64,000 nucleotides of DNA from Leucoraja ocellata (lineage: Eukaryota), in contig JAWMAR010000471.1 of assembly GCA_036785375.1 (NCBI GenBank), positions 496,001 to 560,000 on the forward strand, in the 5' to 3' direction. The notes under the pieces are model-generated. The model saw nothing but the letters and a program-made list of their open reading frames with translations, was not told the DNA's origin and did no database searches. Of this stretch, positions 5,859-63,462 are shown one piece after another. Every line of letters starts with the position of its first letter. Position 1 is the first letter of the stretch. The position numbers and the translations under genes are program-made.

Positions 5859-5928
5859 ATGGGATGGAAGCGGCACTTGGAAGTTGAATATTATTATTAT
5901 CCAATTCTGGCAGCAATCGGAGTACCCG
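5859..5928 (+). CDS. GPCR copy 1, coding exon 1 (MGWKRHLEVEYYYYPILAAIGVP + 1 nt, phase 1)
   Basis: ATG at 5859, 23 codons plus G, then donor G|gtaggt at 5929. Splices in frame to the acceptor at 7589 (G+TG = Val) and supplies the N-terminus and start of TM1. Conserved upstream of all four GPCR copies. Confidence 0.9.
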
Positions 5929-7589: not shown

Positions 7590-8503
7590 TGAACCTGTTG
7601 GCGATTGTGATCCTGTCGCGCAGAAATTGTGGTCTATCCAAATGCACCACTCGGTTCCTGGTGGCCATGGCGTCGGCGGACCTCTTGGTGATCGTCTGCG
7701 AAGTGATATTACATCGGATTGCCGACGTTTACTGGGTGCACTCATTCCTCTTACACAATACTGTGTGCAGGTCCATTATGTTCCTCGCTCCAGCGGCCGT
7801 TGCCTGTTCTGTTTGGCTCACGGTTGCTTTCACATTTGATCGCTTTGTGGCCATTTCCACTCAGAATCTGAGAACCAGATACTGCACCGAGAGAACCGCG
7901 CTGGTGGTTATAGTGACCCTAACTGCGTTCTTCTGTTTACTGAACGTCCCCTGGCCCTTTGCGTACAATTATTATTTCAGGGATCTGCAGGGTATACAGT
8001 GGGGCTGCCTAATAAAATATCAGTTTTACAGCGTATCCTCGTGGATAGCATTTTCCTGGACTCAACAGCTGCTAGTCTCAGTCATTCCATTTTGTTTAAT
8101 TATGCTGATGAACGTGCTCACAGTCAGACGCATTTTAGTGGCCAGTCGTGTCCGCAGAAAACTCCGGGATCTCAGTAATGAGGACCCCGAGATCGCAAAC
8201 CGCAGACGGTCCGTAATTTTACTCCTTGCAATCTCCAGCAGTTTTATGGTGCTCTGGGGCACAAATGTAGCATATTTCGTTGTCTATCGAATTACGAATG
8301 CATTTTGGGTCAGGGGGTTGATGAACCAATTTGCAACATTTGAACAAACTGGAATTCTGCTACAACTGTTGAACACCTGCACAAACACGCTCATTTACAC
8401 CGTGACCCAGAGGAGGTTCAGAGAGCAGCTGCTCCAGGTACTCATGTACCCCTTCAACCGAACTGTAAGTTTAACAAAATCGAGAACACCTGGTGTAAAA
8501 TAA
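7590..8503 (+). CDS. GPCR copy 1, exon 2: class A (rhodopsin-like) 7TM receptor, GPR139/GPR142-like; 327 aa after splicing
   Basis: Acceptor ttttctcttttccag|tg. Shows TM1 VNLLAIVIL, TM2 LVAMASADL, TM3 TFDRF (DRY-like), ECL2 Cys (WGC) and TM7 NTLIY followed by helix 8 FREQL. The ORF-track start at 7541 is intronic. Confidence 0.92.
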
Positions 8504-8767
8504 CATTAAATTACTAATCCCACCGAGTGCTATGTTGTACTGGAGCAGATCTCCAATGATTCCGGAATTGAGCCTCGCCGTTAACTGTTTCCACCTTATT
8601 TTGAATCCAGCGGCAACGTCTCCAGCACGCAATGAAAACAGACTGAGAGTTATGGTCCTAAACATTGCATGCTCCATTACTCTACAATTCTTTGAGACGT
8701 TCCATGGTTACGTATGTAAATGCCCAGTGCACCAATGTGTTTAATACAATTCTTCCTGCAACATTTT

Positions 8768-9300
8768 CAATTCAATTCAATACAATTCAATTCAATTCAA
8801 TTCAATTCAATTCAATTCAACTTTATTGTCATTGCACAGATACAAGTACGGGTACAACGAAATGCAGTTTAGCTTCAGTCCGCAGTAATAGTGCAATATA
8901 GAAATAAAACATACAGAATAAGCAAACAATGCGGACGGAGAGACTGGAGAATCTATCGGCGGGACTCCGAGTTCAGCAATGTGATAGTGTTCTTGTAGAA
9001 GCTCATCCTACTAGTACGAGACCCGAGGCTCCTGTACCGCCTCCCTCATTGGAGGTGGGCAAACAGTCCATGGTTAGGGTGGGAGGGGTCTTTGATGAAC
9101 TTCCCGGCCCGTCTCAGACACCGTTTTCGGTGCAGGGCATCCATGGCAGGGAGCGGGGCACCGATGATATACTGAGCGGGTTTCACCACCCGTTGTAGTG
9201 CCTTCCTGTCCGCTACGGTGCAACTGCTGTACCATACCGTGAAGCAGGTGATCAGGATGCTTTCGATGGTACAGCGGTAAAAGTTGGTTAGGATCTGACC
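8768..9300 (-). mobile_element. Rex/Babar-like LINE 3' fragment with (attca)n tail; paralogue at 27049-27560
   Basis: YRCTIESIL..VWYSSCTVADRKALQRVVKTAQ..DPSHP motif; absent at the equivalent sites after GPCR copies 3 and 4. Confidence 0.8.
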
Positions 9301-10094
9301 AACTTTACATTACGTTAATGAGAGTTCCATTTTATATTTGTTTCTCGCACTGAATGTAATGCCTCATTGCCTCTTACAGATGCTTTCGGTTTTCAGTACA
9401 ATTAGTAATTCAGTACCAGATGCAGCCAAAGGTAGTGAGTGGGTGTTATTCATACAAGTTGGCATTACTAATTATATTTTTAATGCAAGCAATGAGTAAC
9501 AAGCGAGTGTCCAGTAGAGGGCGGTAAAGTGAGTAAGTTCACCTGTGTGGTAAAGATATGCTGAATCGATTTGCATTAATGTCCCACCTCCATTGATGCA
9601 GCGCCGACGCTGGAACTCTGCCTAATGGAGATTCTAATGAGTGCTCACAGTCGGATTTATCTCCTCCTGCAGGGCAAGGAAATGTGAGAAATTCATTAAT
9701 TTATTTTCTTCACCGATGGCGGCTGAGATTTGTATAGCTCCAAATTTGAGTTGAGTACTCTCTCCCCAAATCGTCCGCTCCCGACGTGGTAACGGTTACA
9801 TTTTTACATATTCTGATTGACATTTTCCCTCTCGAGGCCGAAAATACCTTCGCTGAACATGTTATGCTTTATTTCTCGCCATTACTGATTAAAGTAAAAA
9901 AAAAAATCAAAAGACTGAATTGAAAACGACTAGCTTCAACTGGTGACGTCACAATGTGTTGGCTAGCAGTGATCAGCTTCATTTACGTTCGGGAACGGCT
10001 TGAGTTGGGGGACCACGCCTCCTGTGGGGGCTACGGGTAGGGAACGGGTGCGTTGGGGGAGCAGACCCTATCGTAGCCTCTCATAACGTTATAT

Positions 10095-11725
10095 ACTATA
10101 TTTAAGAGGGAGTTAGATGTGGCCCTTGTGGCTAAGGGGATCAGGGGGTATGGAGAGAAGGCAGGTACGGGATACTGAGTTGGATGATCAGCCATGATCA
10201 TATTGAATGGCCGTGCAGGCTCGAAGGGCCGAATGGCCTACTCATGCACCTAATTTCTATGTTTCTATGTTTCTATACTTCAACCAGATCTTCCTGCAAT
10301 CTCCGACATTCCAGTGGGAAAGAATCCAAATATGACCAATCTCTCCCTGCACCGCTAATCCAGCCACCACTCCGGTAAATGAGCAACTGCGACTCCAAAA
10401 CACGCTGTTCTTATTAAAGGTGTCCATCTTGCTTAGTTGGCAAAGACATTCACTAATGACTTTATTACTGGTCACCAATTAGTACAGCGTGCTAGCTTAG
10501 TTAGTTTACATTAGTTCATGATAGGCGTCTACAGGGTAGACTGTCAGAACTTTGATTTTCCCAACGGTCGGTTCTAACCGGGATGGCTGGTCTGGCAGAT
10601 GTTGAAATAATGGAGTGACTGGCCTTGTATTTATTAGAATTTAGAAGGATGAGAGGGGTTCTTTTTGAAACATATAATGTTATTGAGGGTTTGGACGCGC
10701 TCGAGGCAGGAAACATGTTCCCGATGTTGGGAGAGCCCAGAACCAGGTCCACGGTTTAATAATAAGGGGTAAGCCATTTAGATGGAGATGCCGAAACAAA
10801 TGTTCACACATGGAGTACTGAGTCTGTGGAGGCCGGTTCTCTGGATACTGTCAAGAGAGAACTAGATAGGTCTCTTAAAGATAGTGGAGCCTGGGGAAAA
10901 GGGGAGAAGACAGGAACGGGGTACTGATTGTGGATGATCAACCTTGATCACATTGAATGGCGGTGGTGGCTCGAAGGGCCGAATGGCGTACTCCTGCACT
11001 TATTGTCTATTGAAAAGAAGCTTATCAGCTAATTTCCAACTATCATATCTGCAGGACCTTCTCTCTCCGCTTCCAGACCCATAAACTAATTTATTGCACA
11101 AACACATGTGTTACTTTTTAAGCTAGGGTGCTCTCTCGATTGCTAAATAGCCTACACCTTATACTTAAACTGTGGTCCCTAGGCCTGGACCCTCTCAACA
11201 TCGAGAACATGGTTCCTGCCTCCAACGTGCCCAATCCCTTAATAATATTTTATGTTTCAAAAAGAGCTAATCTCAGCATACTAAATTCCAGTGTATACAA
11301 GCCCAGCCGCTCCGTTATATCCACATATGACAGTCCCGCCATCCCGGGAATTAACCTCGTGAACCTACGGTGCACTTCTTCAATAGCAAGAATGTCGTTC
11401 CTCAAATCTGGAGACCGAAACTGCACACAATACTCCTGGTGTGGCCTCACTAGGGCCCTGCACAACTGCAGAATGGCTTCTTTACTCCAATACCCAATTC
11501 CTCTTGTTATGAAGGCCAACGTGCAATTAGCTTTCTTCACTGCCTGCTGTACCCGCATGCTTATTGTCAGTAAGTGATGAACAAGGACACCAAGTGATAC
11601 CCATCACCTTCTCAAGTGCAAAAGTTTCCCTCCCGTTCCTGTTAAACATTTCCCCTCTCACCTTTAACCTAATTCCTCTGGTTCTTGATTCTCCAACTCT
11701 GGGTAAAGGACAAGATACAATATGC
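10095..11725. mobile_element. Several CR1 3' fragments in both orientations (paralogues 28345-29980)
   Basis: LVRPHQEYCVQF..RRFTRLIPGM; 3' UTR gatcagccatgatcatattgaatggc motif. Confidence 0.8.
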
Positions 11726-12129
11726 ATTTACTTGTCTCATGTACCAGTTGGTACAGTGAAATGTGTGGTCAACATACAGCCATACAATAAAATAAAGAAC
11801 ACAACACACGATAGAGTCCAACATAAAACATCCCCACACAGCAGAATAAAGTTTCCCACTGTGATTCAGGTGTGATTCACGTTGTCCAATCCGCTAATGA
11901 CTTCATACACTCTGCCTCGTGCGCCCAAGGAACATAGGCTCAAGATATCAGAGATCTGCTGTGCACACAGGCCCTTCGTCCCACACAATCTGCGCTTACC
12001 ATCGATCACCCCATACAGTAGCACTCTACTACAAGCTGGAAACAATTTACTATTTATAGACGTTAAAAATAAACTATATTTCTGTACGTGCTTCGAGTCT
12101 GGGAGGAAACCGGAGCACGCGGAGAAAAC

Positions 12130-12965
12130 CCAGGCAGTCATCAGAATCAGAATCGGAATCAGAATTATGTGTATTGTCATTTTAAAGTAGGTTCGGACGA
12201 AATTACGTTCCTGCAGACAGAACAACAACAACAAAACACACACAATTAGCACAATTCCACACAAACATCCATCACATTGAATCTCCAAACACCTCCTCAT
12301 TGTGATGGAAGGCAAAGGTCTCATCTCTTCCCTGTTCTCTGTTCTTTATTCTTGTCCCGCAGTCAAGCAGTCAAACTGCTGCATCAAGCTGATCGAAGCT
12401 TTTGATGTTCGAGACCCCGGCGGACCATGGTAAGTCCCGCGTTCGTTTACGCCGTGCCGGGCGATATAAGGCCCTGCTACCGGTCGATTTAAACCCCTTG
12501 ATTCGGGCGGGAGAAGTTGCCGTTGCGGGAGCTCCGAAAAGTGGTCCCCCACAAGGGACCCGCGAGCTCCCGATGTTACCTTCCACGGGGCCTGCAGCCG
12601 GAGCCTCCGAAGCGCCGTAGTCGGATCGCAGCCGCGCGCCACCGCAGCGCTCCGCGCACCGATGTCGGCAGCTCCGCGATAGTGAGTCCGCAGGCTGCGC
12701 GACTGGAGCCCCAGGTCGATTCCGGTTGGAGGCCGCCTGCTGCACGATGTTAGGCCCCAACAACAACGGACACTCGAGAGGGAAAAGGTCGAGTCCCAGA
12801 ACGGGGAAGATATTTAAAAATCCCCCCTGCACCCCCCCCCCCCCCTCCCGCCCACATATACACATCTAAAACTAATATAAAACTAAACCAAAACATACAT
12901 CTAACAAGACAAAAAGAAAGAAAAGAGAGACATACTGCGGAGGCCATGGCCGCGAGGCGCCGCCT
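12130..12965. mobile_element. Unclassified GC-rich interspersed repeat (also 30390-31215; a related element in opposite orientation at ~23995-24780)
   Basis: Multi-copy, GC-rich, with microsatellite-like ends; the overlapping ORFs lack recognisable domains. Confidence 0.55.
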
Positions 12966-13099
12966 TCTTGTCCAACCGTGAGAACTTGCAAAATCGTTAC
13001 CGACAGTTACGACACTACGCCGCCTAATTTATTCCTAGCCTGTTCAACCTATCCTTTCAGCGAAGTCACTGGAGGTAGTATAGTAGAGCTATGATCTGG

Positions 13100-13522
13100 A
13101 ACATAGAAACATAGAAACATAGAAAATAGGTGCTGGAGTAGGCCATTCGGCCCTTCGAGCCTGCACCGCCATTCGATATGATCATGGCTGATCATCCAAC
13201 TCAGTATCCTGTACCTGCCTCCTCTCTATACCCCCTGATCCCTTTAGCCACAAGGGCCACATCTAACTGCATCTTAAATATAGCCAATGAACTGGCCTCA
13301 ACTACCTTCTCTGGCAGAGAATTCCACAGATTCACCACTCTTTGTGTAAAAAATGATTTTCTCATCTCGGTCCTAAAAGACTTCCCTCTTATCCTTAAAC
13401 TGTGACCCCTTGTTCAGGACTTCCCCAACATCGGGAATAATCTTCCTGCATCTAGCCTGTCCAACCCCTTAAGAATTTTGGAAGTTTCCATAAGATGCCC
13501 CCTCAATCTACTAAATTCTAGC
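13100..13522 (-). mobile_element. CR1 3' fragment with (acatagaa)n tail; paralogue 31352-31775
   Basis: Same 3' UTR and tail as other CR1 copies. Confidence 0.85.
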
Positions 13523-14360
13523 GAAGGAACAATCTTCTAGTGAAGGTGTTGTCATGTTCCTGTTGTGAAGGAATTCCCAGACTATAGCGATGTCGAGAAG
13601 TAATTCAGTACCGGATCATTGAGCAAAAACAGTAATTACGGCCTTAAGGTATTTGCACATTTGTGCAGTGGCCCATTGGGAAAGGCGCCATGCGTATTTA
13701 AAGTGTTTAATTTTACTGCCCTCACGTGAATATCCATCAGGGGATTTATTTCAGCAGTTGCTGTAGCTATGTATCTGGTGTCCAGTGATATATCCTCCGA
13801 CACAGATGTGGATTACTCAGTAGGGCCCAATGATGAACTATCCATCTGCATTACAGCTAATCCGCCATTTGCGGTAAATAGTTTGTTTTATTGACTTCCT
13901 ATTCTTCCCGCGTCCGGGACGATTTTGCTGCTATTAGTGAAGGTCAATCAACTGGAATTGGAAAGTCTGTCAGGGTGTCGGTGAAGTGGAATTGGGTAAC
14001 GTAATTGTGACAATTCAGGGCCAGCCCATCCTCCATCCAGAGACACCCTCGTTTTAATAACTAAAACTGTAAAATCTGCAGTTATTAAACAGGTTATCCA
14101 GGACTGAGAGAGAGTAAAACAGAACACACGTTTCAGATCTCTGGTCACATTTCCTATCCCGCGGTCGTCAGAACTCTTGTAATTCTCTGTAGCTAGCGGC
14201 TAATGTTATGGAAACGGATTCCGGAGAAGCAGCTCGCAGTTGGAAACAATAAAACCACCAGGACACCTGCACACAATGAAAGCAAACCGACAACTGAGAG
14301 AGAACAGGAAAGCAGGCACATCCAATCGCATCAGCGGAGCAGAGAGCAAGACAAAGGCGA

Positions 14361-14398
14361 TGTTTTTGTAAGGGGCTTAACTTGTTTCCATCACTGTG
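14361..14398 (-). promoter_or_regulatory. Recombination signal sequence (23-type) of V1
   Basis: On the - strand: CACAGTG (14398-14392), 22-nt spacer, ACAAAAACA (14369-14361; 8/9 match to ACAAAAACC). Confidence 0.93.
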
Positions 14399-14705
14399 CG
14401 CCACAGTGCGCAGTAATAGACTGCAGAGTCGCTGAGATCCAGCCCTGAGATACTCAAGCTGGTGAACTTTGTCGCGGTATTGAGCTCAATAGAGAAACGA
14501 GTATCAGCGTATTGGGCCGTATCTTCATTGTTGCTGGTGTCTCTCGACATAGTAAACTCGGGCTGCATGCCTGGATATTGTCGGTACCAGAATAAAGTGT
14601 ATGCTGCCCATGTGGTATCATAGTTACAGGTTAAAGTCACCGCTTCTCCTTTTGTCTTCGTCGCCGAGGGCAGTGGCTGTGTGACAGATTCTCCGTGAAT
14701 AGTGA
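14399..14705 (-). CDS. T-cell receptor alpha/delta-type variable gene segment 1 (V exon)
   Basis: Acceptor ttttacag|tc. Ig V-set fold: SVTQ..VTLTC (Cys23), WYRQ (Trp41), RFS, LSISGL..SDSAVYYCAL (Cys104). Open frame running into an RSS. Confidence 0.93.
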
Positions 14706-14823
14706 CTGTAAAATAAATATATTGAGATAGTAACAGACATCGGAGTCCCATGAGATTGCACTTCTCAAGCCAAAATCTCACTGCGGAGGGCGAGGGGAAC
14801 TGAAAATATTGATCCAGAATTAC

Positions 14824-14869
14824 CTGTCAGAAACGCTCCCCACACAACACAGATGCCGATGAAACGCAT
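14824..14869 (-). CDS. TCR V segment 1, leader exon (MRFIGICVVWGAFLT + 1 nt)
   Basis: ATG at 14869 (-), hydrophobic signal peptide, donor G|gtaatt, 118-nt intron to the V exon. This is the standard Ig/TCR leader architecture. Confidence 0.88.
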
Positions 14870-14986
14870 TTTACCCGTTCACTCTGTACTAGCTGAGTTC
14901 CAAACTTGAAGAGACACAAACAGGAGCGTTTTCTCAGTCGAAGGGCGTCTGCTGGTCTCCCTGTCACTGCCCTGTGCCCCCAGCGA

Positions 14987-14994
14987 TGTCGTCA
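14987..14994 (-). promoter_or_regulatory. CRE-like element (TGACGACA) about 120 nt upstream of the V1 leader; also at 33242-33249 for V2
   Basis: 7/8 match to TGACGTCA. CRE-like motifs are typical of TCR V promoters, but this short motif could be chance. Confidence 0.3.
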
Positions 14995-17900
14995 GAGATG
15001 TGGGTGGGCAACGGGGTCTCAGCCAATTGAAATACACGTAGCCGGAATCCAGCTTTCCCCCCGAGCGTAGTCGCATCCGCTTGAACAAACCGTGGTTGAG
15101 GAAGGCATATTTGTTCTGGTAACCGGTAGTGAAGGTGCGAAGCCTGATATTGTTAAGCGGAACAATAATAAGGTGCATATTCACAAATGGAATAGATCGG
15201 GTAAACTCACAGAGTCTCTTGGCCAGATTGGGGGATCGAGAAACAGAGGACATAGATTGAACTTGAGTGGGGAGGAAGATTTAATAGAGACCAAAAGGGT
15301 AACTTTTTCATACAAAGGGGGCGGCGCATGGAACGCGCTGGCAGAGGTAGTAGTTAAGGCAGGTACAATCGCAAAGTTTAAGAAGAACGTTGACATGTAC
15401 ATGAATAGAGCTGATGTTGAGGGATATGGGCGAAACGCTTGCGGGTAGGACTGGTGTGGATGGAACATGTTGGCCGGTGTGGGCAAGCGGGGGCCTAAGG
15501 GTATGTTTCCACGTTGTAAGACTCTATGATGCCTTGATTCTAAAACAAACCACCACAGTATTAACGTCGTCCGTCAAAAGGCGACAGGCAGTGGTCAGAT
15601 CTACCGTCGCTTCGGCAGTGTCGAGAAAATGGGAGTTGTTACGATGTTTTGATGTTTTCATTGAGAAATGCACGTGATTTCTATATGAAGTAAATTACAA
15701 GCAAAGCCAGAATAATGTGCAAGGATCCATTTTCAATCAATGTTTTTAGTTCCACTCCCCTTCATCTGCCATGTTTTGACATATGAAATTCATTGCTGAG
15801 GACCTCACCCCACCGAGTCCACGCCAACCATCGATGACCCGATCACTTTCGTTCCATGTTATTCCACTTTTCCATCTATTCCTCACACACTTGGTGCATG
15901 TTTACACAGGCCAATTCACCTAAAATAACCACACGTATTTTGGATACGGGAGGAAATCAGAGCGCCTGGACGATACCGACACGGTCACAGCGAGACGGGA
16001 AAACTCCACTCAGACATTACCCGAGGACAGGATTGATCCCGGATCTCTGAAGCTTTGAGGCAGCAGCTGCGCCACTGAACCGACAAATGTGTGATTTGTT
16101 TTTATAAAGATTGCAGCTGGGTGATTGTTGAACTTTAACCACAGCTAGCCGGCAAAATCGGTTTGGAATTTCCATGAGTTTCAGCATTATATCGAGTGGT
16201 CTGGTGATCTGCATTCTGCGCACCGACCGCTGCTGCCTGGATTCGGTTCGTGGTCAGGGAGTAGGGCGGTTTATTTCTGCCTCCAGTGGAAACATTATTA
16301 GAGCGCGCATCGTTCACTATGTGTAGTTTCAGCGTCGCCTCCACCACGGGAACAGTCAGCAGCTGATTAACATTTAAAATGATGCACTTATGCAAAATAC
16401 ACACACATTATTGCTACCAACGGCTAACAATACCATAATCCCGACAGGATCAGGCGGCCAGGGCTTTCAGATACAAATTCATATTGAGATTCACATTCAA
16501 AATATATCTCCAAAATCGAAGAAAATATATGCCAACAATGGCCCACAAATCATCTTATCGAATATGCTAACTATACAACGTGTTGTGCGTCATGTAAACT
16601 ACATGTAACAGTTGCTCGCGGAATGGCGTGGATATCAGGGTAGTTGGGGAGGAGCAGCCATACATTGAGAAATCGTAACATTTGGCTGGGTCTTTACATG
16701 GAAATGGTTCCGCCTTCACAGGCCTCGACTATGGGAAAAACAACTGCGATTATTGTGAATTGTGGAATTATAGTACGTCACGTTTTTGAATTTCAAAATA
16801 TACTTTATGCGAGAAATTAATATGTCCAATACATGACCCTTACAAAACCCCATCCGACATTCACGGAGGCTAAGCATACATCCAATACTGCTTACACAAA
16901 TTACACAATTTTACCTCCCACCTAAGGGGTCACAAATAACATTAGCACATTTGCAGATGACACAAAGCTGGGTGACAGTGTGAACAGTGAGGAGGATGCG
17001 GTGAGAATGACTTCGACAGGTGGGGTGAGTGGGCAGATGCATGGCAGCAGCAATTTAATGTGGGTAAATGTAGGGTGAGCCACTTAATTAATGTGAGGTT
17101 AGCCAAGTAATTCCACATCAATGCATTATCAACGCATTCCGATGATTTCCCCCTAATATCTGCAATAACGTCACATGCCTGTCTGTTTTATTGATAAAAA
17201 CATCTCGAAATATAACTCTTTGATCAAGGACATTCCTTGCTGATATTTATTCCTGGTCATTTAGCACGTTACACGTTATATTTTCATATCATTGTCATCA
17301 TGTAATATATTAATGCCGCTGCTGTATCCAATTGTATTCACTACCAACTAGAAAGGTCCATGTGATTTGCCTCATTTAGACCGCTGCACAGGAACCATTC
17401 TCGTTTGTTTTGAAGAGGAGCTCCAAGCGAAATCCAGGAAAATATTATCACTGGTTAAATGTCAAGTGAATTCAACAGTGTCTGGGAAGAGCAGTAGAAA
17501 GGTTGCAAATACATTATTACATCGCAGCATGTGTTGATAAGTGATGACAAGGTCATAAGTGATGCGTGCAGAATTAGGCCACTGGGCCCATCAAGTCTAC
17601 TCTGCCATTTAATCATGGATGATCCATCTCCCCCTCCCCCCCAACCCCATTCTCCTGCCTTCTCCCCATAACCCCAGACACTCGTACTAATCCAGAATCT
17701 GTCTATCTCTGCCTTAAATATATAAATTAACGGCATCTACAGCTTGGTGTGGCAAAGAACTCCACAGATTCACCTCCCATTAATTAAATAAATTCGTCCT
17801 CCTTATTGCCAAAGTAACGCCATTCTATTCTGAGGCTATGGCCTATAGTCGTAGATTCTCCCTCTAGTGGAATCATCCTCTCCACGACCATTCTATGCAA

Positions 17901-18675
17901 ACATTTCACGATTCGGTAAGTTTCAATGTGGTCCCCCCCCTGATGCTTCCAGTCTCCAGCGAGTACAGGCTCAGTGTCTTCAAACGATCAACATATTTTA
18001 ACTGCCTCATTCTTGAAATCGTTGTTGTAAACGTCCCCTGGACCCTCTCCGCAGCTGGCTCATCCTTCCTTAGATATGGTGCCCACAATTGCTCACAATA
18101 GTCCAAATGCGAGCTGACCAGCGCCTTTGTAGTGCCTCAGTATTACATACCTGTTGTTTTATTCTTTCCCGATTGAAGTAAATGCTAGCATTGCGTTTGC
18201 CTTCTTTACTACCAATTCGATTTGCAAATTACCTGGTTTGGGAATCCTGCACTAGCCCTCTCATGTCCCTTTGCACCTTCGATTTCTTGATTCTCTCCCG
18301 ATGTTTTGAAATATTCTATGCCTTCTACCAAAATGCATGACTCCACACTTTGTTACTCAATATTCCATCTGCCACTTCTCTGCCCACTCTCCAAACCTAT
18401 CCAAGTTCTTATGTAAAGACCCAGCTTTCTGTCCACCACCTGTGTATGGAGCATGCTGCCGGTGATGGTAGTTGAGGCAGGTACTGTCGCAACGTTTAAG
18501 AAATATTGCAACAGGGACGTGGATACGATATGTTAACAGGAATATGGGCCAATCGTAGGCAGGTGGGGGTGTGCAGATGGGGTACATTTTTGATCGTGGG
18601 CAGGTTGGGCCGGGGGACTATTTTTCACGCTGTATGACACTAGAACTCTATGCCAAGATCGAAGAACAACAAGTC

Positions 18676-21672
18676 ATGTTGAGCGTGGCCCCTTGGACAA
18701 GAGTGACCGTAATATGGTTGAATTCTTCATTAGGATGGAGAGTGACATTTTCAATTCAGAAACAAGGATTCTGAACTTAAAGAAAAGTAACTTTGAGGGT
18801 ATGAGACGTGTATTGGCCAAGGTTGATTGGCATTTGATTCTTAAAGGGTTGACGGTGGGTATGCAATGGAAGGCATTTAAAGACTGCATGGATGAACTAC
18901 AACAATTGTTCATCCCAGTTTGGCAAAATAATAAATCAGGGAAGGTAGTGCATCCGTGGATAACAAGGGAAATCAGGATAGTATCAAAACAAAAGATGAA
19001 GCGTACAAACTAGCAAGAAAAAGCAGCCTACCAGAGGACTGGGAAACATTTTCGAGTCCAACAGAGGAGGACAAAGGGCTTAACTAGGAACTGGAACATA
19101 GATTACTGGCAGGGAACATAAAAACGGACTGCAGAAGTTTATATAGATATGTGAAGAGAAAACGATTAGTTGAAACAAATGTAGGTCCCTTGCAGTCAGA
19201 AACAGGTGAATTGATCATAGGGAACAAGGGCATGGCAGACCAATTGAATAACTACATTGGTTCTGTCTTCAGTAAGGAAGACATAAATAATCTGCCGGAA
19301 ATAGTAGGGGACCGCGGGATAATTGAGATGGAGAACTGAGTGAAATCCAGGTTAGCCGGGAAGTGGTGTGAGCAAAATTGAATGGATTAAAGGCTGATAA
19401 ACCCCCAGGGCAGATAGGCCTCATCCCAGAGTAATTAAGGAAGTAGCCCCAGAAATACTGGATGCATTAGTGATAATTTTTAAAAACTCCTTAGATTCTG
19501 GAGTAGTTCCTGTGGATTGGAGGGTAGCTAATTTAACCCCACTTTTAAAAAAGTAGGGAGAGAGAAATCTGGGAATTACAGACCAGTTAATCTAGCATCG
19601 GTAGTGGGGGAACTGCTAGAGTCAGTTATTAAAGATGGGATAGCAGCACATTTGGAAAGTGTTGAAATCATTGGAGAAAGTCAGCATGGATTTACAAAAG
19701 GCAAACCCAGTTGAGCAGAGGGATCTGGGAATAACCGTGCATAGTTCCTTGAATGTGGAATCTCATATAGATAGGGTGGTAAAGGAAGCTTTTGGTATGC
19801 TAGACTTTATAAACAGAGCATTGAGTATAGAAGCTGGGATGTAATGTTAAAATTGTACAAGGGATTGGTGAGACCAAATCTTGAGTATGGTGTACAATTT
19901 TGGTCGCCCAATTTTAGGAAGGATGTCAACAAAATAGAGAGAGTGCAGAGGAGATTTACTAGAATGTTGCCTGGGTTTCAACAACTAAGTTACAGAGATA
20001 GGTTGAATAAGTTAGATCTTTATTCTCTGGAGCCCAGAATGTTAAGGGGGGACTTGATAGAGGTCTTTAAAATGATGAGAGGGATATACATAGTTGATGT
20101 GGACAAGCTTTTCCCTTTGAGAATAGGGAAGATTCAAACAAGAGGACATGATTTCAGAATTAAAGGACATAAGTTTAGGGGTAACATGAGGGGGAACTTC
20201 TTTACTCAGAGAGTGGTAGCGGTGTGGAATGAGCTTCCAGTGGAAGTGGTGGAGGCAGGTTCGTTGGTATCATTTAAGAATAAATTGGATAGGGATATGG
20301 ATGAGAAGGGAATGGAGGGTTATGGTATGAGTGCAGGCAAGTGGGACTAAGGGAAAAAGTTGTTCGGCACGGACTTGTAGGGCCAAGATGGCCTGTTTCC
20401 GTGCTGTAATTGTTATATGGTTATATGGTTATATGTCTGACGAATCTTATGGAATTTAACGAGGATGTAACTAATGGGGTGGTTAAGGGAGAACCAGTGG
20501 ATGTGTTATATCTATACTTCCAGAAGGCTTTCGACAAGGTCCCACATAAGAGATTATTATACAAACTTATAGCACACGGTATTGGGGGTTCAGTGTTGAT
20601 GTGGATAGAGAACTGACTTGCAAACAGGAAGCAAAGAGTAGGAGTAAACGGGTCCTATTCAGAATGGCAGGCAGTGACTAGTGGGGTACCGCAAGGCTCG
20701 GTGCTGGGACCTCAGCTATTCACAATATATATTAATGATTTGGACGAGGGGATTGAATGCAACATCTCCAAGTTTACGATGACACGAAGCTGGGGGACAA
20801 TGTTAGCTGTGAGGAGGATGCTAAGAGACTGCAGGGTGACGTGGCTAGGCTGGGTGAGTGGGCAAATGCATGGCAGATGCAATATAATGTGTATACATGT
20901 GAGGTTATCCACTTTGGTGGCAAAACCAAGAAAGTAGACTATTATCTGAATGGTAGCCGATTAGGAAAAGGGGAGATGCAACGAGACCTGGGTGTCATGG
21001 TACACCAGTCATTTAAAGTAGACATGCAGGTGCAGCAGGCAGTGAAGAAAGCGAATGGTATGTTAGCATTCATAGAAAAAAATGATTTGAGTATAGGAGA
21101 CAACACGAGGAGTATTGCGTACAGTTTTGGTCTTCTAATCTGAGGAAAGACATTCTTACCATAGAGGGAGTACAGATAAGGTTCGCCAGACTGACTCCTG
21201 GGATGACAGGACTTTAATATGAAGAAAGACTTGATAGACTCGGATTGTACTCGCTACACTTTAGGAGATTGAGGGGGGATCTTAAAGAAACGTACACAAT
21301 TCTTAAGGGGCTGGACAGGCTAGATGCAGGAAGATTGTCCTCGTTGTTGGGGAAGTCCAGGACAAGGGGTGACAGTTTAACGATCAAGGGGAATTCTTTT
21401 AGGACCCAGATGAGAAAAACATTTTTTCACACAGAGAGTGGAGAATCTCTGGAACTCTCTGCCACAGAAGTTAGTTGAGGCCTGTTCATTGGCTATATTT
21501 AAGATGGGGTTTGATGTGGCTCTTGTGGGTAAAGGGATCAGGGGGTATGGAAAGAAAGCAGGAACAGGATACTTAGTTGGATGATCAGCCATGATCATAT
21601 TGAATGGCGGTCAGGCTCGAAGGGCCGAATGGCCTACTCCTGCAACTATTTTCTATGTTTCTATGTTTCTAT
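18676..21672 (+). mobile_element. Degraded CR1 ORF2 with a nested 3' fragment of a second CR1 family (~19710-20433); paralogue 36955-39708
   Basis: The host RT is interrupted between KGK and CLTN by a fragment ending (gttatatg)n; the host ends in (tttctatg)n. Confidence 0.88.
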
Positions 21673-22932: not shown

Positions 22933-23002
22933 ATGAGTTGGATGCGGCACTTGGAAGTTGAATATTATTATTATCCAAATCTAGCAGCAATCGCAATACC
23001 AG
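22933..23002 (+). CDS. GPCR copy 2, coding exon 1 (MSWMRHLEVEYYYYPNLAAIAIP)
   Basis: Homologous to 5859-5928; donor G|gtaggt at 23003. Confidence 0.88.
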
Positions 23003-25677: not shown

Positions 25678-26591
25678 TGAACCTGTTGGCGATTGTGATC
25701 CTGTCGCGCAGAAATTGTGGTCTCTCCAAATGCACCACTCGGTACCTGGTGGCCATGGCGACGGCGGACCTCTCGGTGATTGTCTGCGAAGTGATATTAC
25801 ATCGGATTGCCGACCTTTACTGGTGGGACACATTCTTACTCCACAATACTGTGTGCAGGTCCATTATGTTCCTCGCTCCCGCGGCCGTTGCCTGTTCTGT
25901 TTGGCTCACGGTCGCTTTCACATTTGATCGCTTTGTGGCCATTTCCACTCAGAATCTGAGAACCAGATACTGCACGGAGAGAACCGCGCTGGTGGTTATA
26001 GTGACCCTAACTGCGTTCTTCTGTTTACTGAACGTCCCCTGGCCGTTTGCGTACAATTATCATGTCAGGGATCAGCAGGGTATACAGTGGGGTTGCCTAA
26101 TAAGATATCACTTCTATAGCCTATCCTCGTGGATAGCATTTTCCTGGACTCAACAGCTGCTTGTCCCAGTCATTCCATTTTGTTTAATTATGCTGATGAA
26201 CGTGCTCACAGTTAGACGAATTTTAGTGGCCAGTCGTGTCCGCAGAAAACTCCGCGATCTCAGTAATGAGGACCCCGAGATCGCAAACCGCAGAAGGTCT
26301 GTAATTTTACTCCTTGCAATCTCCAGCAGTTTTATGGTGCTCTGGAGCACAAATGTAGTATATTTCGTTTTCTATCGAATTACGAATGCATTTCGGGCCA
26401 GGGGGTTGATGAACCGATTTCCAACATTTGAACAAACTGGAATTCTGCTACAACTGTTGAGCACCTGCACAAACACGGTCATTTACACCGTGACCCAGAG
26501 GAGGTTCAGAGAGCATCTGCTCCAGGTACTCATGTACCCCTTCACCCTAGCTGTAAGTTTAATAAAATCGAGAAAACCTGGTGTAAAATAA
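25678..26591 (+). CDS. GPCR copy 2, exon 2, GPR139/GPR142-like 7TM receptor, intact
   Basis: Acceptor tttccag at 25677; open frame paralogous to copy 1 with the same length. Confidence 0.92.
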
Positions 26592-32500: not shown

Positions 32501-32615
32501 ACAATAAAACCACCAGCACACCTGCACACAATGAAAGCAAACCGACGACTGAGAGAGAACAGGAAAGCAGGCACATCCAACCGCATCAGCGGAGCAGAGA
32601 GCAAGACAAAGGCGA

Positions 32616-32653
32616 TGTTTTTGTAAGGGGCTTAACATGTTTCCATCACTGTG
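32616..32653 (-). promoter_or_regulatory. Recombination signal sequence (23-type) of V2
   Basis: CACAGTG (32653-32647), 22-nt spacer, ACAAAAACA (32624-32616). Confidence 0.93.
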
Positions 32654-32960
32654 CGCCTCAGTGCGCAGTAATAGACTGCAGAGTCGCTGAGATCCAGCCC
32701 TGAGATACTCAAGCTGGTGAACTTAGTCGCGGTATTGAGCTCAATAGAAAAACGAGTCTCAGCGTATTGGGCCATATCTTCATTGTTGCTAGTGTCTCTC
32801 CTCATAGTGAACTCGGGCTGCATGCCTGGATATTGTCGGTACCAGAATAAAACATATCCAGTCCATGTGGTATCATAGTTACAGGTTAAAGTCACCGCTT
32901 CTCCTTTTGTCTTCGTCGCCGAGGGCAGTGGCTGTGTGACAGATTCTCCGTGAATCGTGA
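32654..32960 (-). CDS. T-cell receptor alpha/delta-type variable gene segment 2 (V exon)
   Basis: Same V-set motifs as V1, open frame, ends YYCALR at the RSS; about 95% nt identical to V1 by manual comparison. Confidence 0.93.
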
Positions 32961-33078
32961 CTGTAAAATAAATATATTGAGATAGTAACAGACACCGGAG
33001 TGCCAAGAGATTGTAATTTTCAAGCCAAAATCTCACTGAGGAGGGCGAGGGGAACTGAAAATATTGATCCAGAATTAC

Positions 33079-33124
33079 CTGTCAGAAACGCACCCCACAC
33101 AACACAGATGCCGAGGAAACGCAT
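33079..33124 (-). CDS. TCR V segment 2, leader exon (MRFLGICVVWGAFLT + 1 nt)
   Basis: Paralogue of 14824-14869 at offset 18255, with intact ATG and donor. Confidence 0.88.
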
Positions 33125-42028: not shown

Positions 42029-42098
42029 ATGAGTTGGAAGCGGCACTTGGAAGTTGAATATTATTATTATCCAATTCTGGCAGCAATCGGAGTAACCG
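42029..42098 (+). CDS. GPCR copy 3, coding exon 1 (MSWKRHLEVEYYYYPILAAIGVT)
   Basis: Homologous exon 1 with donor G|gtaggt at 42099. Confidence 0.85.
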
Positions 42099-43483: not shown

Positions 43484-44398
43484 TGAACTTGCTGGCAATT
43501 GTGATCCTGGCCCGCAGAAATTGTGGTCTCTCCAAATGCACCACTCGGTACCTGGTGGCCATGGCGACGGCGGACCTCTCTGTGATTGTCTGCGACGTGA
43601 TATTAAATCGGATTGCCGACCTTTACTGGATGAAAACATTCCTCTTCCACAATACTGTGTGCAGGTCCATTATGTTCCTCGCTCCCGCGGCCGTTGCCTG
43701 TTCTGTGTGGCTCACGGTTGCTTTCACATTTGATCGCTTTGTGGCCATTTCCACTCAGACTCTGAGAACCAGATACTGCACTGAGAGAACCGCGCTGGTG
43801 GTTATAGTGACCCTAACTGCGTTCTTCTGTTTACTGAACGTCCCCTGGCCTTTTGCGTACAATTATTATTTCAGGGATCGGCAGGGTATACAGTGGGGTT
43901 GCATAATACGATATCAGTTGTATAGCCTATCCTCGTGGATAGTTTTTTTCCTGGACTCAACAACTGCTAGTCCCAGTCATTCCATTTTGTTTGATTATGC
44001 TGATGAACGTGCTCACAGTCAGACGCATTTTAGTGGCCAGTCGTGTCCGCAGAAAACTCCGCGATCTCAGTGGTGAGGACCCCGAGATCGCAAACCGCAG
44101 ACGGTCCGTAATTTTACTCCTTGCAATCTCCAGCAGTTTTATGCTGCTCTGGGGCACAACTGTGGTATATTTCGTTTTCTATCGAATTACGAATGCATTT
44201 TGGGTCAGGGGGTTTAGGAACCCATATGCAACATTTGATCAAACAGCTATTCTGCTACAACTGTTGAACACCTGCACAAACACGCTCATTTACACCGTGA
44301 CACAGAGGAGGTTCAGACAGCATCTGCTCCAGGTACTCATGTACCCCTTCACCCTAACTGTAAGTTTAATAAAATCGAGAAAATCTGGTGTAAAATAA
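43484..44398 (+). pseudogene. GPCR copy 3, exon 2, with a +1 frameshift in a T7 run (pseudogene or homopolymer sequencing error)
   Basis: Acceptor cccgcag at 43483. The frame breaks at gtttttttcc (T run 43943-43949), where paralogues read gcattttcc. ORFs 43429-44076 and 43991-44398 are the two halves; no other lesion seen. Confidence 0.8.
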
Positions 44399-52236: not shown

Positions 52237-52403
52237 TACCCAAATCACCAACGTTCCATCTCACTTCCAGAGAAAGATTCTGATTCTGGTGGAAGCCTCT
52301 GATTGGTGGAAGAGGACCAGCAGAAGCAGCTGATTGGCTGATTGGCTTGTATTGTATTTGCATTGGAATTGTAAGGCTTTATTGTATTTGGATAAGGGGG
52401 ACA

Positions 52404-53339: not shown

Positions 53340-53479
53340 TATGATTGGGGGGAGGGACTCAAATTGGGAAAGCTAGCAGTCAGTGTGTGAAGCAGGGGGC
53401 AGAGAATGGTAGCACTCTGACCCAAAATGTAGGGGAGAGAGAAGAAAAAGAAAATAATCAGAGAATAAGAGAGGGTGGG

Positions 53480-56290
53480 TTTCTTAAATGTGTATATTTT
53501 AATGCTAGGAGCATTGTAAGAAAAGTGGATGAACTTAGAACCTGGATTGACACCTGGAAGTATGATGTTGTGGCGATCAGTGAAACATGGTTGCAGGAGG
53601 GCTGTGATTGGAAATTAAATATTCCAGGATTTCGTTGCTTCAGGTGTGATAGAATTTGAGGGGCAAGAGGTGGAGGTGTTGCATTGCTTATCAGGGAAGA
53701 TATTACAGCAGTGCTTTGGCAGGATAGATTAGAGGGCTCGTCTAGGGAGACTATTTGGGTGGAACTGAGAAATTGGAAAGGGGTAGCAACACTTATAGGG
53801 GTGTATTATAGACCGCCAAATGGGGAGCGAGAATTGGAAGAACAAATATGTAAGGAAATTGCAGATATTAGTAGTAAGCACAAGGTAGTGATTGTGGGAG
53901 ATTTCAATTTTCCACACATAGACTGGGAAACACATTCTGTAAATGGGCTGGATGGTTTGGAGTCTGTAAAATGTGAGCAGCATAGTTTTTTGCAACACTA
54001 CATAGAAGTACCTACTAGAGAAGGGGCGGTACTGGACCTCCTGTTAGGAAATGAGATGGGTCAGGTGGCAGAGGTATGCGTTGGGGAACAGTTCGGGTCC
54101 AGTGATCACAATACCATTAGTTTCAATATAAATATGGAGAGGGACAAAACTGGACCTAGGGTTGAGATTTTTGATTGGAGAAAGGCTAACTTTGAGGAGA
54201 TGCGAAAGGATTTAAAAGGAGTAAATTGGGACAGTTTGTTTTATGGGAAAGATGTGGAAGAGAAATGGAGTACATTTAAAGGTGACATTTTAAGAGTACA
54301 GAATCTTTATGTCCCTGTTCGGTAGAAAGGAAATCGTAAAAATTGTAAAGAGCCATGGTTTTCAATGGAAATTGGACACTTGGTTCGGACAAAGAGGGAG
54401 ATCTACAATAATTATAGGCAGCATGGAGTGAATGAGATGCTTGAGGAGTATAAAGAATGTAAAAAGAATCTTAAGAAAGAAATTAGAAAAGCTAAAAGAA
54501 GATATGAGGTTGCTTTGGCATGTAAGGTAAAAGTAAATCCGAAGGGTTTCTACCGCTATATTAAAAGCAAAAGGATAACGAGGGATAAATCTGGTCCATT
54601 AGAGAGTCAGAGTGGACAACTATCTGCAGAGCCAAAAGAGATGGGGGAGATATTGAACAGTTTCTTTTCTTCGGTATTCACCAAGGAGAAGGATATTGAA
54701 TTATGAGAGGTAAGGGAAACAAGTAGAATAGCTATGGAAACGACGAGGATCAAAGAAGAGGAAGTACTGACACTTTTGAGAAATATAAAAGTGGATAAGT
54801 CTCCAGGTCCGGACAGGATATTCCCTAGGACATTGAGGGGAGTTAGTGTAGAAATAGCAGGGGCTATGGCAGAAATATTTCAAATGTCATTAGAAACGGG
54901 AATAGTGCCGGAGGATTAGCGTACTACGCATGTTGTTCCATTGTTTAAACAGGGGTCTAAGTGTAAACCTAGCAATTATAGACCTGTTAGTTTGACGTCA
55001 GTGGTGGGCAAATTAATGGAAAGAATACTTAGAGATAATATATATAAGCATCTGGATAAACAGGGTCTGGTTAGGAACAGTCAACATGGATTTGTGCCTG
55101 GAAGGTCTTGTTTAACTAATCTTCTTGAATTTTTTGAAGATGTTACACGGGAAATTGATGAGGGTAACGCAGTGGATGTTGTGTATATGGACTTCAGTAA
55201 GGCCTTTGACAAGGTTCCTCATGGAAGGTTGGTTAAGAAGGTTCTATGGTTGGGTATTAATGGTGGAGTAGCAAGATGGATTCAACAGTGGCTGAATGGG
55301 AGATGCCAGAGAGTAATGGTGGATGGTTGTTTGTCAGGTTGGAGGCCAGTGACGAGTGGGGTGCTACAGGGATCTGTGTTGGGTCTACTGTTGTTTGTCA
55401 TGTACATCAATGATCTGGATGATGGTGTGGTAAATTGGATTAGTAAGTATGCAGATGATACTAAGATAGGTGGGGTTGCGGGTAATGAAGTAGAGTTTCA
55501 AAGTCTACAGAGAGATTTATGCCAGTTGGAAGAGTGGACTGAAAGATGGCAGATAGAGTTTAATGCTGATAAGTGTGAGGTGCTACATCTTGGCAGGACA
55601 AATCAAAATAGGACGTACATGGTAAATGGTAGGGAATTGAAGAATGTAGGTGAACAGAGGGATCTGGGAATAACTGTGCACAGTTCCCTGAAAGTGGAAT
55701 CTCATGTAGATAGGGTGGTAAAAAAAGCTTTTGCTGTGCTGGCCTTTATAAATCAGAGCATTGAGTATAGAAGTTGGGATGTAATGTTAAAATTGTACAA
55801 GGCATTGGTGAGGCCAATTCTGGAATATGGTGTACAATTTTGGTCGCCTAATTATAGGAAGGATGTCAACAAAATAGAGAGAGTACAGAGGAGATTTCCT
55901 AGAATGTTGCCTGGGTTTCAGCAACTAAGTTACAGAGAAAGGTTGAACAAGTTAGGGCTTTATTCTTTGGAGCGCGGAAGGTTAAGGGGGGACTTGATAC
56001 AGGTTTTTAAAATGATGAGAGGGATAGACAGAGTTGACGTGGAAAAGCTTTTCCCACTGAGAGTAGGGAAGATTCAAACAAGGCGACATGACATGAGAAT
56101 TAAGGGACTGAAGTTTATGGGTAACATGAGGGGGAACTTCTTTACTCAGAGAGTGGTAGCTGTGTGGAATGAGCTTCCAGTGAAGGTGGTGGAGGCAGGT
56201 TCGTTTTTATCATTTAAAAATAAATTGGATAGTTATATGGCTGGGAAGGGAATGGAGGGTTATGGTCTGAGCGCAGGTATATGGGACTAG
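53480..56290 (+). pseudogene. CR1 ORF2 (APE endonuclease + reverse transcriptase) with four in-frame nonsense codons and no frameshift
   Basis: YFNARS, ISETW, VGDFN, SDHN (APE); DFSKAFD, QGSVLG, YADD (RT). ORF pieces 53345, 53684, 54365, 54734 and 54941 are all in one frame. Confidence 0.9.
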
Positions 56291-58419: not shown

Positions 58420-59040
58420 AGGTACACTACACCCACTGGCTCTCCCTTGTCCATTTTCCTACTACCATCCTTAAACAAAATCCAGAAGATTAGTCAAGTA
58501 TGATATCCCCTTCGTAAATCCATGCTGACTCGGACCGATCCTGTCACTGCTATCCAAATGTGCCGCTATTTCGTCTTTTTATAATTGATTCCAGCATCTT
58601 CCCCACCGCCGATGTCAGGCTAACTGGTCTATAATTCCCTGTTTTCTCTCTCCCGCCTTTCTTAAAAAGTGCGATAACATTTGCTACCCTCCAATCCACA
58701 GGAACTGATCCTGAATCTATGGAACATTATAAAATTATCACCAATGCAACCACGAATTCTAGAGCCATTTCCTTAAGTACTCTGGGATGCAGACTATCAG
58801 GCCTTGGGGCTTTATTAGGCTTCAGTCCCATCAGTCTACCCAACACCATTTCATGCCTAATGTAGATGTATTTCAGTTCCTTCGTCACCCATATCCTCTG
58901 GCCACTACTGCATCAGGAACTGTGTCTGTGTCCTCCTTAGTGAAGACGGATCCAAAGTACCTGTTCAACTCATCTGCCATTTCATTGTACCCCATAATAA
59001 ATTCATCTTTTTCAGTCTTCAAGGGTCCAGTCTTCAAGGA
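58420..59040 (-). mobile_element. CR1 ORF2 fragment
   Basis: GPLKTE..MADELNRYFGSVFT; homologous to other CR1 pieces. Confidence 0.8.
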
Positions 59041-61092: not shown

Positions 61093-61162
61093 ATGAGTTG
61101 GAAGCGGCACTTGGAAGTGGAATATTATTATTATCCAATTCTGGCAGCAATCGGAGTACCCG
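61093..61162 (+). CDS. GPCR copy 4, coding exon 1 (MSWKRHLEVEYYYYPILAAIGVP)
   Basis: Homologous exon 1 with donor G|gtaggt at 61163. Confidence 0.9.
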
Positions 61163-62548
61163 GTAGGTCAAGGGAACGCAGTACGTGGGACTGAGATGTG
61201 GGGTGATGTGTTGATAAAGACAATGTCAAAGGTAAAGTGTAAATAGTGTGCGAAACACGGGAATGCTAGACTGCAATCTTCAGGTTAGGGCGGTATTAAC
61301 TAGAAAATGTTTGTTTAAGAAATTACTGCAGTTGCTGGAGAAATCGAAGCTAGACAAAAATGCTGGAGAATTAGACAGCGGGTGAAGCGGCATCTAGGAA
61401 GCGAAAGAATAGGTGACGTTTCGGGTCGAGACTGATCAGTCTGAAGAAGGGTCTCGACCCGAAACGTCACCTATTCCTTTGTTAAGCTACTTGATCGTTG
61501 GCCGTTTATTGGATCTGGCACAGGTTAATTCTCTTCAGGTTTAGGTGCATTGTTGTCATGTATTTCCGGGAGCTGCAAAAAGCTATGGTTTGCAAGAAAT
61601 CAAAATTAGATCAAATAATATTAAATAACAGTACAAACAATTCAATCTCAGTAACAGGTAGTGTAAAAGGGGAAATCGGAGTGCAGAGCGTAGTTCAAGT
61701 TTGGGAGCGCACTGCAGCGTATCACATCCACAAAGCCCAATGTCCGCAAGGGGATATAGGTGAAACGGCAATGCCCTGGCATATGGAAGAGCGGCTCAGA
61801 AGCCTGACAACAGAGGGGAAAGAGCTGTTCTGGAGTCTGGTGGAGGGAGCTTTAAGCCTTCTCCATTTTCTGCCCGACGAGAGCAGGAAGTAGAAGGAAT
61901 GAGCAGGGTGAAACATGTCTCCGTTTCCAATGGATTGTGAAGTGCGAACGCAGTCAACAGTGCGGAGTCCATTTCGTGATATGGACCCGGCGTCTTCCAG
62001 AACCCTGTGCAGTTTATTCTTTATGGGGCATAGATGGACCCACAACAAGCTTTGTGCGGCACCGTTGTTGAGAATTATTGTGGAAGGGTGTTACCACTAA
62101 TTCTCTCGGTTTATTCTTTAGGAAGTTGAGTATCCATTCGCAAGCTGGTGCACTGATCGCTGGGCTCTGGAGTTTATCAATGGGTTTGGATGGGAGTAGT
62201 GTTGAAGGCAAGTTCTCCAGCGGAGAAATGGGAATCCGACTTTCGACTCCTTGTTGGCCGGCTGGTCCCGGGAAGGGTTTAGGTCCAGGACGATGGCGTC
62301 TGATGCGGACATGCTGCTGCAATATGCAGTCTGCGGTGCATCACGGGTGGCTGGGAGACAGCTCACGCTACCTGCGTAGACCGCTGCTAACTAATCCGCA
62401 CAGCTCCTTGGCAAGCACCCAGGTTTGCATGTGGGCAGTTGTTTTCGAACAAATAAGCAAAGCGTAACCCAAGATTGACCCCCGCCTCCAAATTTGCATC
62501 ACGTGTCCCTTACATGTAACTACAGTTTCCTCTTTTCTACACCCGCAG

Positions 62549-63462
62549 TGAACTTGCTGGCAATTGTGATCCTGGCCCGCAGAAATTGTGGTCTCTCCAA
62601 ATGCACCACTCGGTACCTGGTGGCCATGGCGACGGCGGACCTCTCTGTGATTGTCTGCGAAGTGATATTAAATCGGATTGCCGACCTTTACTGGATGAAA
62701 ACATTCCTCTTCCACAATACTGTGTGCAGGTCCATTATGTTCCTCGCTCCCGCGGCCGTTGCCTGTTCTGTGTGGCTCACGGTTGCTTTCACATTTGATC
62801 GCTTTGTGGCCATTTCCACTCAGACTCTGAGAACCAGATACTGCACTGAGAGAACCGCGCTGGTGGTTATAGTGACCATAACTGCGTTCTTCTGTTTACA
62901 GAACGTCCCCTGGCCTTTTGCGTACAATTATTATTTCAGGGATCTGCAGGGTATACAGTGGGGCTGCCTAATACGATATCAGTTTTATAGCCTATCCTCG
63001 TGGATAGCATTTTCCTGGACTCAACAGCTGCTAGTCCCAGTCATTCCATTTTGTTTAATTATGCTGATGAACGTGCTCACAGTCAGGCGCATTTTAGTGG
63101 CCAGTCGTGTCCGCAGAAAACTCCGCGATCTCAGTAATGAGGACCCCGAGATCGCAAACCGCAGACGGTCCGTAATTTTACTCCTTGCAATCTCCAGCAG
63201 TTTTATGGTGCTATGGGGCACAAATGTAGCATATTTCGTTTTCTATCGAATTACGAATGCATTTTGGGTCAGGGGGTTGAGGAACCAATTTGCAACATTT
63301 GAACAAACTGGAATTCTGCTACAACTGTTGAACACCTGCACAAACACGCTCATTTACACCGTGACTCAGAGGAGGTTCCGAGAGCATCTGCTCCAGGTAC
63401 TCATGTACCCCTTCACCCTAACTGTAAGTTTAATAAAATCGAGAACACCTGGTGTAAAATAA
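62549..63462 (+). CDS. GPCR copy 4, exon 2, GPR139/GPR142-like 7TM receptor, intact
   Basis: Acceptor cccgcag at 62548; open frame to TAA at 63462. Confidence 0.92.

Follow-up and report, generated by a model that had tools for sequence, protein, structure and literature searches.

Four receptor gene copies in the window

The window analysed in this study, a 64,000-nucleotide stretch of the Leucoraja ocellata genome (assembly GCA_036785375.1, contig JAWMAR010000471.1, hereafter C471, positions 496,001 to 560,000 of the forward strand), contains four copies of a class A G-protein-coupled receptor (GPCR) gene, all on one strand (Pfam 7tm_1, E about 1e-18, the only family that Pfam returned for them). 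An earlier reading of the sequence alone, here called the original prediction, had proposed that these paralogues are diversified in their extracellular loops (ECLs) by selection on ligand recognition and conserved in G-protein coupling. Each copy consists of an exon 1 of 70 bases, a phase-1 intron just before N1.50, and an exon 2 of 914 bases lying 1.4-2.7 kb downstream of exon 1; the predicted product has 327 residues and a very short N-terminus. Copy 4 serves as the reference for residue numbering, codon n of exon 2 being residue n+23 of the full-length protein. The receptor features, with transmembrane helices abbreviated to TM, are as follows.

5859..5928, plus strand: copy 1 exon 1 (23 codons and one base; N-terminus and first half of TM1)
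7590..8503, plus strand: copy 1 exon 2, intact (second half of TM1 to the stop codon; 7tm_1 E=1.9e-18)
22933..23002, plus strand: copy 2 exon 1
25678..26591, plus strand: copy 2 exon 2, intact
42029..42098, plus strand: copy 3 exon 1
43484..44398, plus strand: copy 3 exon 2, pseudogene (+1 frameshift in the T run at 43943-43949, start of TM5)
61093..61162, plus strand: copy 4 exon 1
62549..63462, plus strand: copy 4 exon 2, intact
62683..62721, plus strand: ECL1 of copy 4 (codons 46-58)
62914..63000, plus strand: ECL2 of copy 4 (codons 123-151, including C45.50)
63247..63297, plus strand: top of TM6, ECL3 and top of TM7 of copy 4 (codons 234-250)

Exon 1 of copy 1 matches the N-terminus of an Amblyraja protein, and a TATA-like box lies near it at 5778-5785. 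In exon 1 of copy 2 (22933-23002), a polar Asn replaces Ile inside TM1, and in that of copy 3, Thr replaces a conserved Pro before the intron. Copies 1 and 2 lie in an 18-kb tandem unit. The window genes also have a recent segmental duplicate on the same contig (contig positions ~503-573 kb versus 680-732 kb, 159-177 kb apart), in which copy 1 differs at 3 of 912 bases and copy 4 at 9. Since the duplicate of copy 3, 159 kb away at 698.7 kb, carries the same frameshift, an assembly slip is disfavoured and copy 3 is probably a real pseudogene.

The AlphaFold2 model of the receptor (pLDDT 84.9) has a class A fold with seven helices plus helix 8, and the closest folds found by Foldseek were peptide GPCRs (TM-score about 0.7). 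Among the core motifs, N1.50, D2.50, D-R3.50, W6.48, N7.49/Y7.53 and the C3.25-C45.50 pair are present, and P6.50 and P7.50 are absent; these generic residue numbers were assigned from the motifs by our own analysis. Loop boundaries were taken from the model together with the motif positions.

Variation among the four copies is concentrated in the loops

The ECL1, ECL2 and ECL3 strings quoted for the four copies in the original prediction were all found in frame. Over exon 2 codons 2-288 (287 codons), the amino acid varies at 42 codons, and the proposed enrichment in the loops was borne out: 20 of the 59 ECL1-3 codons vary and, of the 228 codons outside the loops, only 22 do so (Fisher P=1.6e-5); codons variable only silently number 4/59 in the loops versus 23/228 elsewhere. 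The claim of a nearly invariant core was likewise correct, with 3 of 64 codons varying in TM3, intracellular loop 2 (ICL2) and TM4 (codons 59-122) and 1 of 23 in ICL3. Between copies 1 and 2, mismatches affect 23 of the 177 bases encoding the loops (13%), 26 of the remaining 735 coding bases (3.5%) and 3.2% of the co-duplicated non-coding block of 10.5 kb. ECL1 is the same in copies 3 and 4.

Codon models and simulated nulls

In a first search of the genome, 130 out of 4329 candidates were scored, and 124 of them had an open exon 2 frame. Of these intact rows, 115 fell into four clades (A 47, B 35, C 17, D 16) and 9 outlying rows were excluded; removal of rows more than 99% identical left 32, 27, 15 and 13 rows in clades A to D, the order in which values are given below. 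Clade A contains the window genes, copy 1 being represented by its duplicate 3 bases away. The codon models were self-written (GY94-type, F3x4, branch proportions from IQ-TREE, naive empirical Bayes).

On a single tree, twice the log-likelihood difference (2dlnL) between M2a and M1a was 91/97/56/34. The comparison of M7 with M8 that had been suggested favoured M8 (99/98/61/41), as did that of M8 with M8a (87/97/55/34; omega, the replacement-to-silent rate ratio, about 4-5.6). Over the four clades, the loops, with 59 of the 287 codons, account for 34 of the 42 sites whose posterior exceeds 0.9. All 10 such sites of clade A are loop sites (50, 51, 130, 141, 143, 151, 235, 241, 247 and 249), and ECL1 sites 50 and 51 show 6 residue types each in this clade. 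When five segments were each given their own tree and rate, 2dlnL fell to 33/25/28/14. The proposed conservation of the signalling face is reflected in purifying selection on the cytoplasmic half (omega 0.29/0.27/0.53/0.21); strong purifying selection outside the loops thus marks the receptor genes as functional.

Copies of the family exchange sequence. Four-gamete incompatibility increases with distance in all clades (P=0.007/0.001/0.036/0.0005), and copy 4 looks mosaic: a single base separates it from copy 3 across codons 1-58, and across codons 123-304 it is nearer to copy 1. In clade B (L051-L085), a 4-residue ECL2 deletion found in 9 of 27 copies is paired with different ECL1 and ECL3 types and appears to be a clear marker of loop shuffling. 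Mutation of the activation-induced deaminase (AID) type was considered as a source of the variation; WRC/GYW enrichment gave no consistent signal over the four clades (P=0.07, 0.48, 0.04, 0.70), and this candidate was rejected.

No-selection simulations with conversion fitted to divergence and incompatibility served as matched nulls (n=77/24/38/29), and in a harsh set (n=108) rate variation was added to the matched conversion, the loops mutated twice as fast and doublet mutations were set at 5%. The observed grid statistic was reached by none of the 77/24/38/29 matched nulls. The simulations nevertheless led us to reject single-tree M1a/M2a and M7/M8 comparisons as proof of selection, because such tests give false positives here; single-tree codon tests overstate selection in arrays of this kind.

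Selection signal at the rim and a conserved deep pocket

The most robust signal of diversifying selection appears to be carried by codons 234-250, that is, ECL3 and the top of TM6. Their tree-free ratio of replacement to silent diversity (piN/piS) was 3.09, 4.65, 2.29 and 1.18 in clades A to D, values reached by 1/77, 0/24, 1/38 and 3/29 matched nulls, and the clade A value was reached by 0 of the 108 harsh nulls. Pooled over clades, the ratio was 2.07 (confidence interval 1.35-3.65), with P=0.013 after correction for choosing the best of three loops. When sites were picked in the other clades, the ratio was 2.19 for clade A (bootstrap P=0.009) and 4.95, 1.20 and 1.24 for clades B, C and D, with a pooled value of 1.72. 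The five most diverse codons of clade A exceeded 77/77 matched nulls and all but 3 of the 108 harsh nulls, and per-site replacement diversity in the loops correlates between clades (rho 0.22-0.38; P<0.05 in three of six pairs). ECL1 residues 50-51 are probably under diversifying selection as well.

A number of observations weigh against such selection. The nominal threshold of 5.99 was exceeded by 48/77, 22/24, 19/38 and 2/29 matched nulls, and 27 of the 108 harsh nulls reached the observed single-tree statistic of clade A. Site-wise variation of the silent rate cut the statistic to 14.5 in clade A, a value reached by 11/108 harsh nulls, and to 3.5 in clade D. Pooled loop omega is near 1 in clades A and D; with local silent rates, it was 0.97 in clade A and that of ECL2 was 0.51. 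The clade A piN/piS was 1.13 for the pooled loops, which 11/77 matched and 22/108 harsh nulls reached, and 0.62 for ECL2, where replacement divergence is high as well and silent diversity is 0.175 versus 0.077 gene-wide. The cross-validated sites were not significant in clades C and D. The signal is also uneven between sub-arrays, the ECL3 ratio being 10.9 on C471 versus 0.8 on contig C128 and the ECL1 ratio 1.9 and 7.2, respectively, and the recombination tests were not significant on third positions alone. Taken together, diversifying selection as originally proposed holds for ECL3 with the top of TM6 and for a few ECL1 sites, and does not hold for ECL2 or for the pooled loops of clade A. 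We regard omega>1 at the rim as supported, not proven, and judge it likely from these sequence comparisons that the selection is real.

The deep pocket behaves differently from the rim. At 18 deep-pocket positions, piN was 0.026 versus a piS of 0.094 (piN/piS 0.28); most of these positions do not vary inside a clade, and some change from one clade to another. The variation of young clades lies on the rim. A pocket conserved to this degree does not seem to fit a small-molecule repertoire like that of the odorant receptors at this evolutionary depth.

A large family distinct from GPR139

Two further searches with distant queries returned 117 and 119 places, 35 of them common to both, which brings the total to 331 distinct places; this number is a minimum for places but counts alternative haplotigs too, and the tree covers no more than three of the places added. 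With its large size, its arrays and its pseudogenes, the family is of the birth-and-death type. The named hits among the 120 matches listed are all from sharks, rays or a chimaera, the closest being a Leucoraja protein (91%).

GPR139 is the nearest characterised relative, and the family belongs in the GPR139/142-related group. Among PDB entries, the family profile matched human GPR139 (7VUG/9M42) best (E=1.2e-18, as against 4e-12 for the runner-up), and family and GPR139 share the phase-1 intron just before N1.50, W6.48 and the absence of P7.50. Unlike GPR139, the window family has A, P, Q, N and I in place of E3.32, F3.33, H5.43, R6.51 and N7.38, has gained both the C3.25/C45.50 pair and an extended ECL2, is without P6.50 and runs to hundreds of copies. 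The available portions of two reports (PMC5430874; PMC8807744) place F3.33, H5.43, W6.48, N7.38 and R6.51 in the Trp/Phe site of GPR139; only W6.48 of these five is kept.

Orthology to GPR139 was rejected, in line with the earlier view that this is not the single-copy gene: the genome's own GPR139 lies on another contig (C465; match to human GPR139 at E=1.8e-159), and copy 4, which belongs to a different clade, shares 24% identity with it. The phylogeny with true GPR139 that had been called for, a quick tree without bootstraps in which rows L136 and L138 were disregarded as wrong open reading frames (ORFs), places the expansion apart from GPR139. Between the two stand few-copy genes of salamanders and of coelacanth and teleosts, GPR139-related orphans that are about 27% identical to the window proteins and share the C3.25/ECL2 cysteine pair with them. 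These are possibly the fish and coelacanth relatives named GPR210A/B in the accessible part of PMC6504862. No membership of the OR, TAAR, V1R, V2R, T1R or T2R families was indicated by Pfam, nor was any such receptor among the PDB matches listed, and the ESM Atlas held automatic 'probable GPR139' clusters only. No description of the expansion or of its position in the shark T cell receptor (TCR) locus was found in the literature searched, outside which most subscription papers lie, and the available text of PMC10869828, PMC10116579 and PMC11979771 did not mention the family under the terms searched.

Position within a TCR alpha-type locus

The 18-kb units each hold, besides a receptor gene, one TCR variable (V) segment with a leader, an open frame and a recombination signal sequence (RSS) made up of a heptamer, a 22-base spacer and a nonamer.

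14361..14869, minus strand: TCR alpha/delta-type V segment 1 (leader 14869-14824, V exon 14705-14399, RSS 14398-14361; V-set E=4e-14)
32616..33124, minus strand: TCR V segment 2 (leader from 33124, V exon 32960-32654, RSS 32653-32616)
8524..19056, plus strand: block duplicated with copies 1 and 2 (95.8% identical to 26806-37333; holds the V segment)

The two V segments were duplicated together with the receptors. They differ at 7 of 101 residues, mostly near the complementarity-determining regions CDR1 and CDR2. The V exons (14399-14705 and 32654-32960) differ at 16 of 307 bases, above the 3.2% of the surrounding duplicated block.

On the window's contig, V-set domains are dense at 1-404 kb and again at 484-954 kb and 1.27-1.36 Mb, and 132 segments resembling joining (J) segments with 12-base signals (1.40-1.60 Mb) accompany a C1-set exon (1.50 Mb). 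Since V segments lie within the window and on both sides of it, and J-like segments and a C1-set exon lie on the same contig, the window (496-560 kb of the contig) is placed inside a TCR alpha-type locus by its sequence content. On contig C128, C1-set exons at 4.55 and 5.74-5.81 Mb lie between arrays of the family (3.8-4.8 and 6.06-6.37 Mb), which suggests a further linkage with immunoglobulin-type clusters.

According to the available part of PMC2275272, olfactory receptor genes lie among the TRAV segments in mammals. The present case is similar in that a multigene class A GPCR family sits within TCR alpha/delta V segments, and differs in that the receptor family is unrelated and that receptors and V segments are co-duplicated over about 0.9 Mb. 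Given the mammalian example, location alone is no proof of immune use. In PMC12227049, which deals with this region in sharks, the accessible text and two supplements did not mention the receptors under the terms searched.

Possible roles of the diversified receptors

The explanation that we favour, tentatively and at a little less than an even chance, is that the window genes are young tandem copies of a huge cartilaginous-fish family in which the G-protein face and the deep pocket are held constant, and the rim is likely selected, probably for peptide-sized ligands. Positive selection would diversify the outer rim at ECL3 with the top of TM6 and at the tip of ECL1, and the rim variants would bind a range of external ligands of peptide size. 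New combinations of ECL1, ECL2 and ECL3 variants would arise through gene conversion or unequal crossing-over, and all copies would couple to one G-protein class. The ligands would be large, since small-molecule specificity would be expected to alter deep-pocket residues. Rim contacts matter chiefly where the ligand is a peptide or protein, or where a pathogen protein docks on the surface. Receptor arrays are known to evolve by selection focused on the loops together with conversion. Formyl-peptide receptors and MRGPRs likewise form tandem arrays with extracellular diversification and a conserved signalling face, although there is no sequence evidence that the window family belongs with them.

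The fixed pocket and variable rim would also be expected if the copies of a clade read one host ligand through the deep pocket and their rims evaded pathogen proteins docking on the loops, much as loop changes in chemokine receptors evade a docking toxin or a viral attachment protein. The location in an immune locus suits this explanation too. Escape does not alone explain why hundreds of intact copies are kept (124 of 130 scored exon 2 frames open), and the deep-pocket residues differ between clades; we consider it unlikely. It is similarly improbable that there was no adaptive diversification at all, tolerant loops, conversion and local rate differences having mimicked selection while the genes rode on the duplication of TCR V segments. 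The joint duplication of receptor and V segment in the 18-kb unit is what such passive expansion would produce, the available part of PMC2275272 supplies the mammalian parallel, and the near-neutral pooled loops of clades A and D, the raised silent divergence of ECL2 and the false positives among the matched (48/77) and harsh (27/108) nulls agree with it. What it leaves unaccounted for is the ECL3 piN/piS that so few nulls attain (1/77, 0/24, 1/38, 3/29; 0/108 harsh), the correlation of loop replacement diversity across clades (rho 0.22-0.38) and the strong purifying selection elsewhere, which marks the genes as functional.

A sensory role is a further alternative. Cartilaginous fishes have a mean of 43.8 olfactory genes according to the accessible portion of PMC10869828, a small known repertoire, and the family could be a fifth olfactory-type family that fills this gap by detecting small water-borne molecules in a sensory epithelium. 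Its size and birth-and-death arrays, its kinship with the Trp/Phe receptor GPR139, its very short N-terminus and its position inside the TCR alpha/delta locus, like that of olfactory receptors, are in keeping with such a role. Since the variation of young clades avoids the deep pocket and only W6.48 is kept of the five GPR139 ligand residues, we think this decidedly unlikely; the 50 top entries listed for brain and olfactory tissue of catshark in the available text of PMC11979771 include no GPCR, which points weakly the same way.

For the favoured explanation of a rim selected for peptide-sized ligands, the location makes us lean towards use of the receptors in immune cells. In one RNA run from another organism (tissue unstated, about 6% read), 10 reads fell on exon 2 at 80% likeness, with none at >=95% and no splice joint, which gives no evidence either way. 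A bolder extension, to which we attach a very low probability, is that hundreds of rim-diversifying GPCRs form a germline repertoire of non-self sensors in lymphocytes, in which V-J joining opens, deletes or inverts arrays so that T-cell clones differ. Some hundreds of receptors labelled 'probable GPR139' stand here against the ~44 olfactory genes with which cartilaginous fishes are credited in the part of PMC10869828 mentioned above. The rim-focused selection, the fixed deep pocket and the co-duplication of V segments set a sensory against an immune repertoire as testable alternatives; what this study adds is a calibrated selection test, the contrast between rim and pocket, and the finding of V segments within the duplicated unit.

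Other features

The J segments (C471:1396643-1596721) fall into three blocks whose orientation alternates (10 segments on the minus strand, 50 on the plus, 72 on the minus), and near-duplicate J sets are mirrored around the constant exon at about 1.50 Mb, reflecting either an inverted duplication or an assembly artefact. True GPR139 occurs twice on contig C465 (706093 and 753270), inverted and 47 kb apart, with near-identical exon 2 proteins. Outside the expansion, a single-copy orphan GPCR (L133, contig C16:5041988-5042941) is 62% identical to a coelacanth 'probable GPR139' and groups with teleost and amphibian-type sequences, as a conserved vertebrate gene distinct from GPR139. Within the window, a retrotransposon of the long interspersed nuclear element (LINE) type lies at 52284-56290 on the plus strand, with a GDSL-esterase ORF1 and endonuclease and reverse transcriptase domains spread over several frames.

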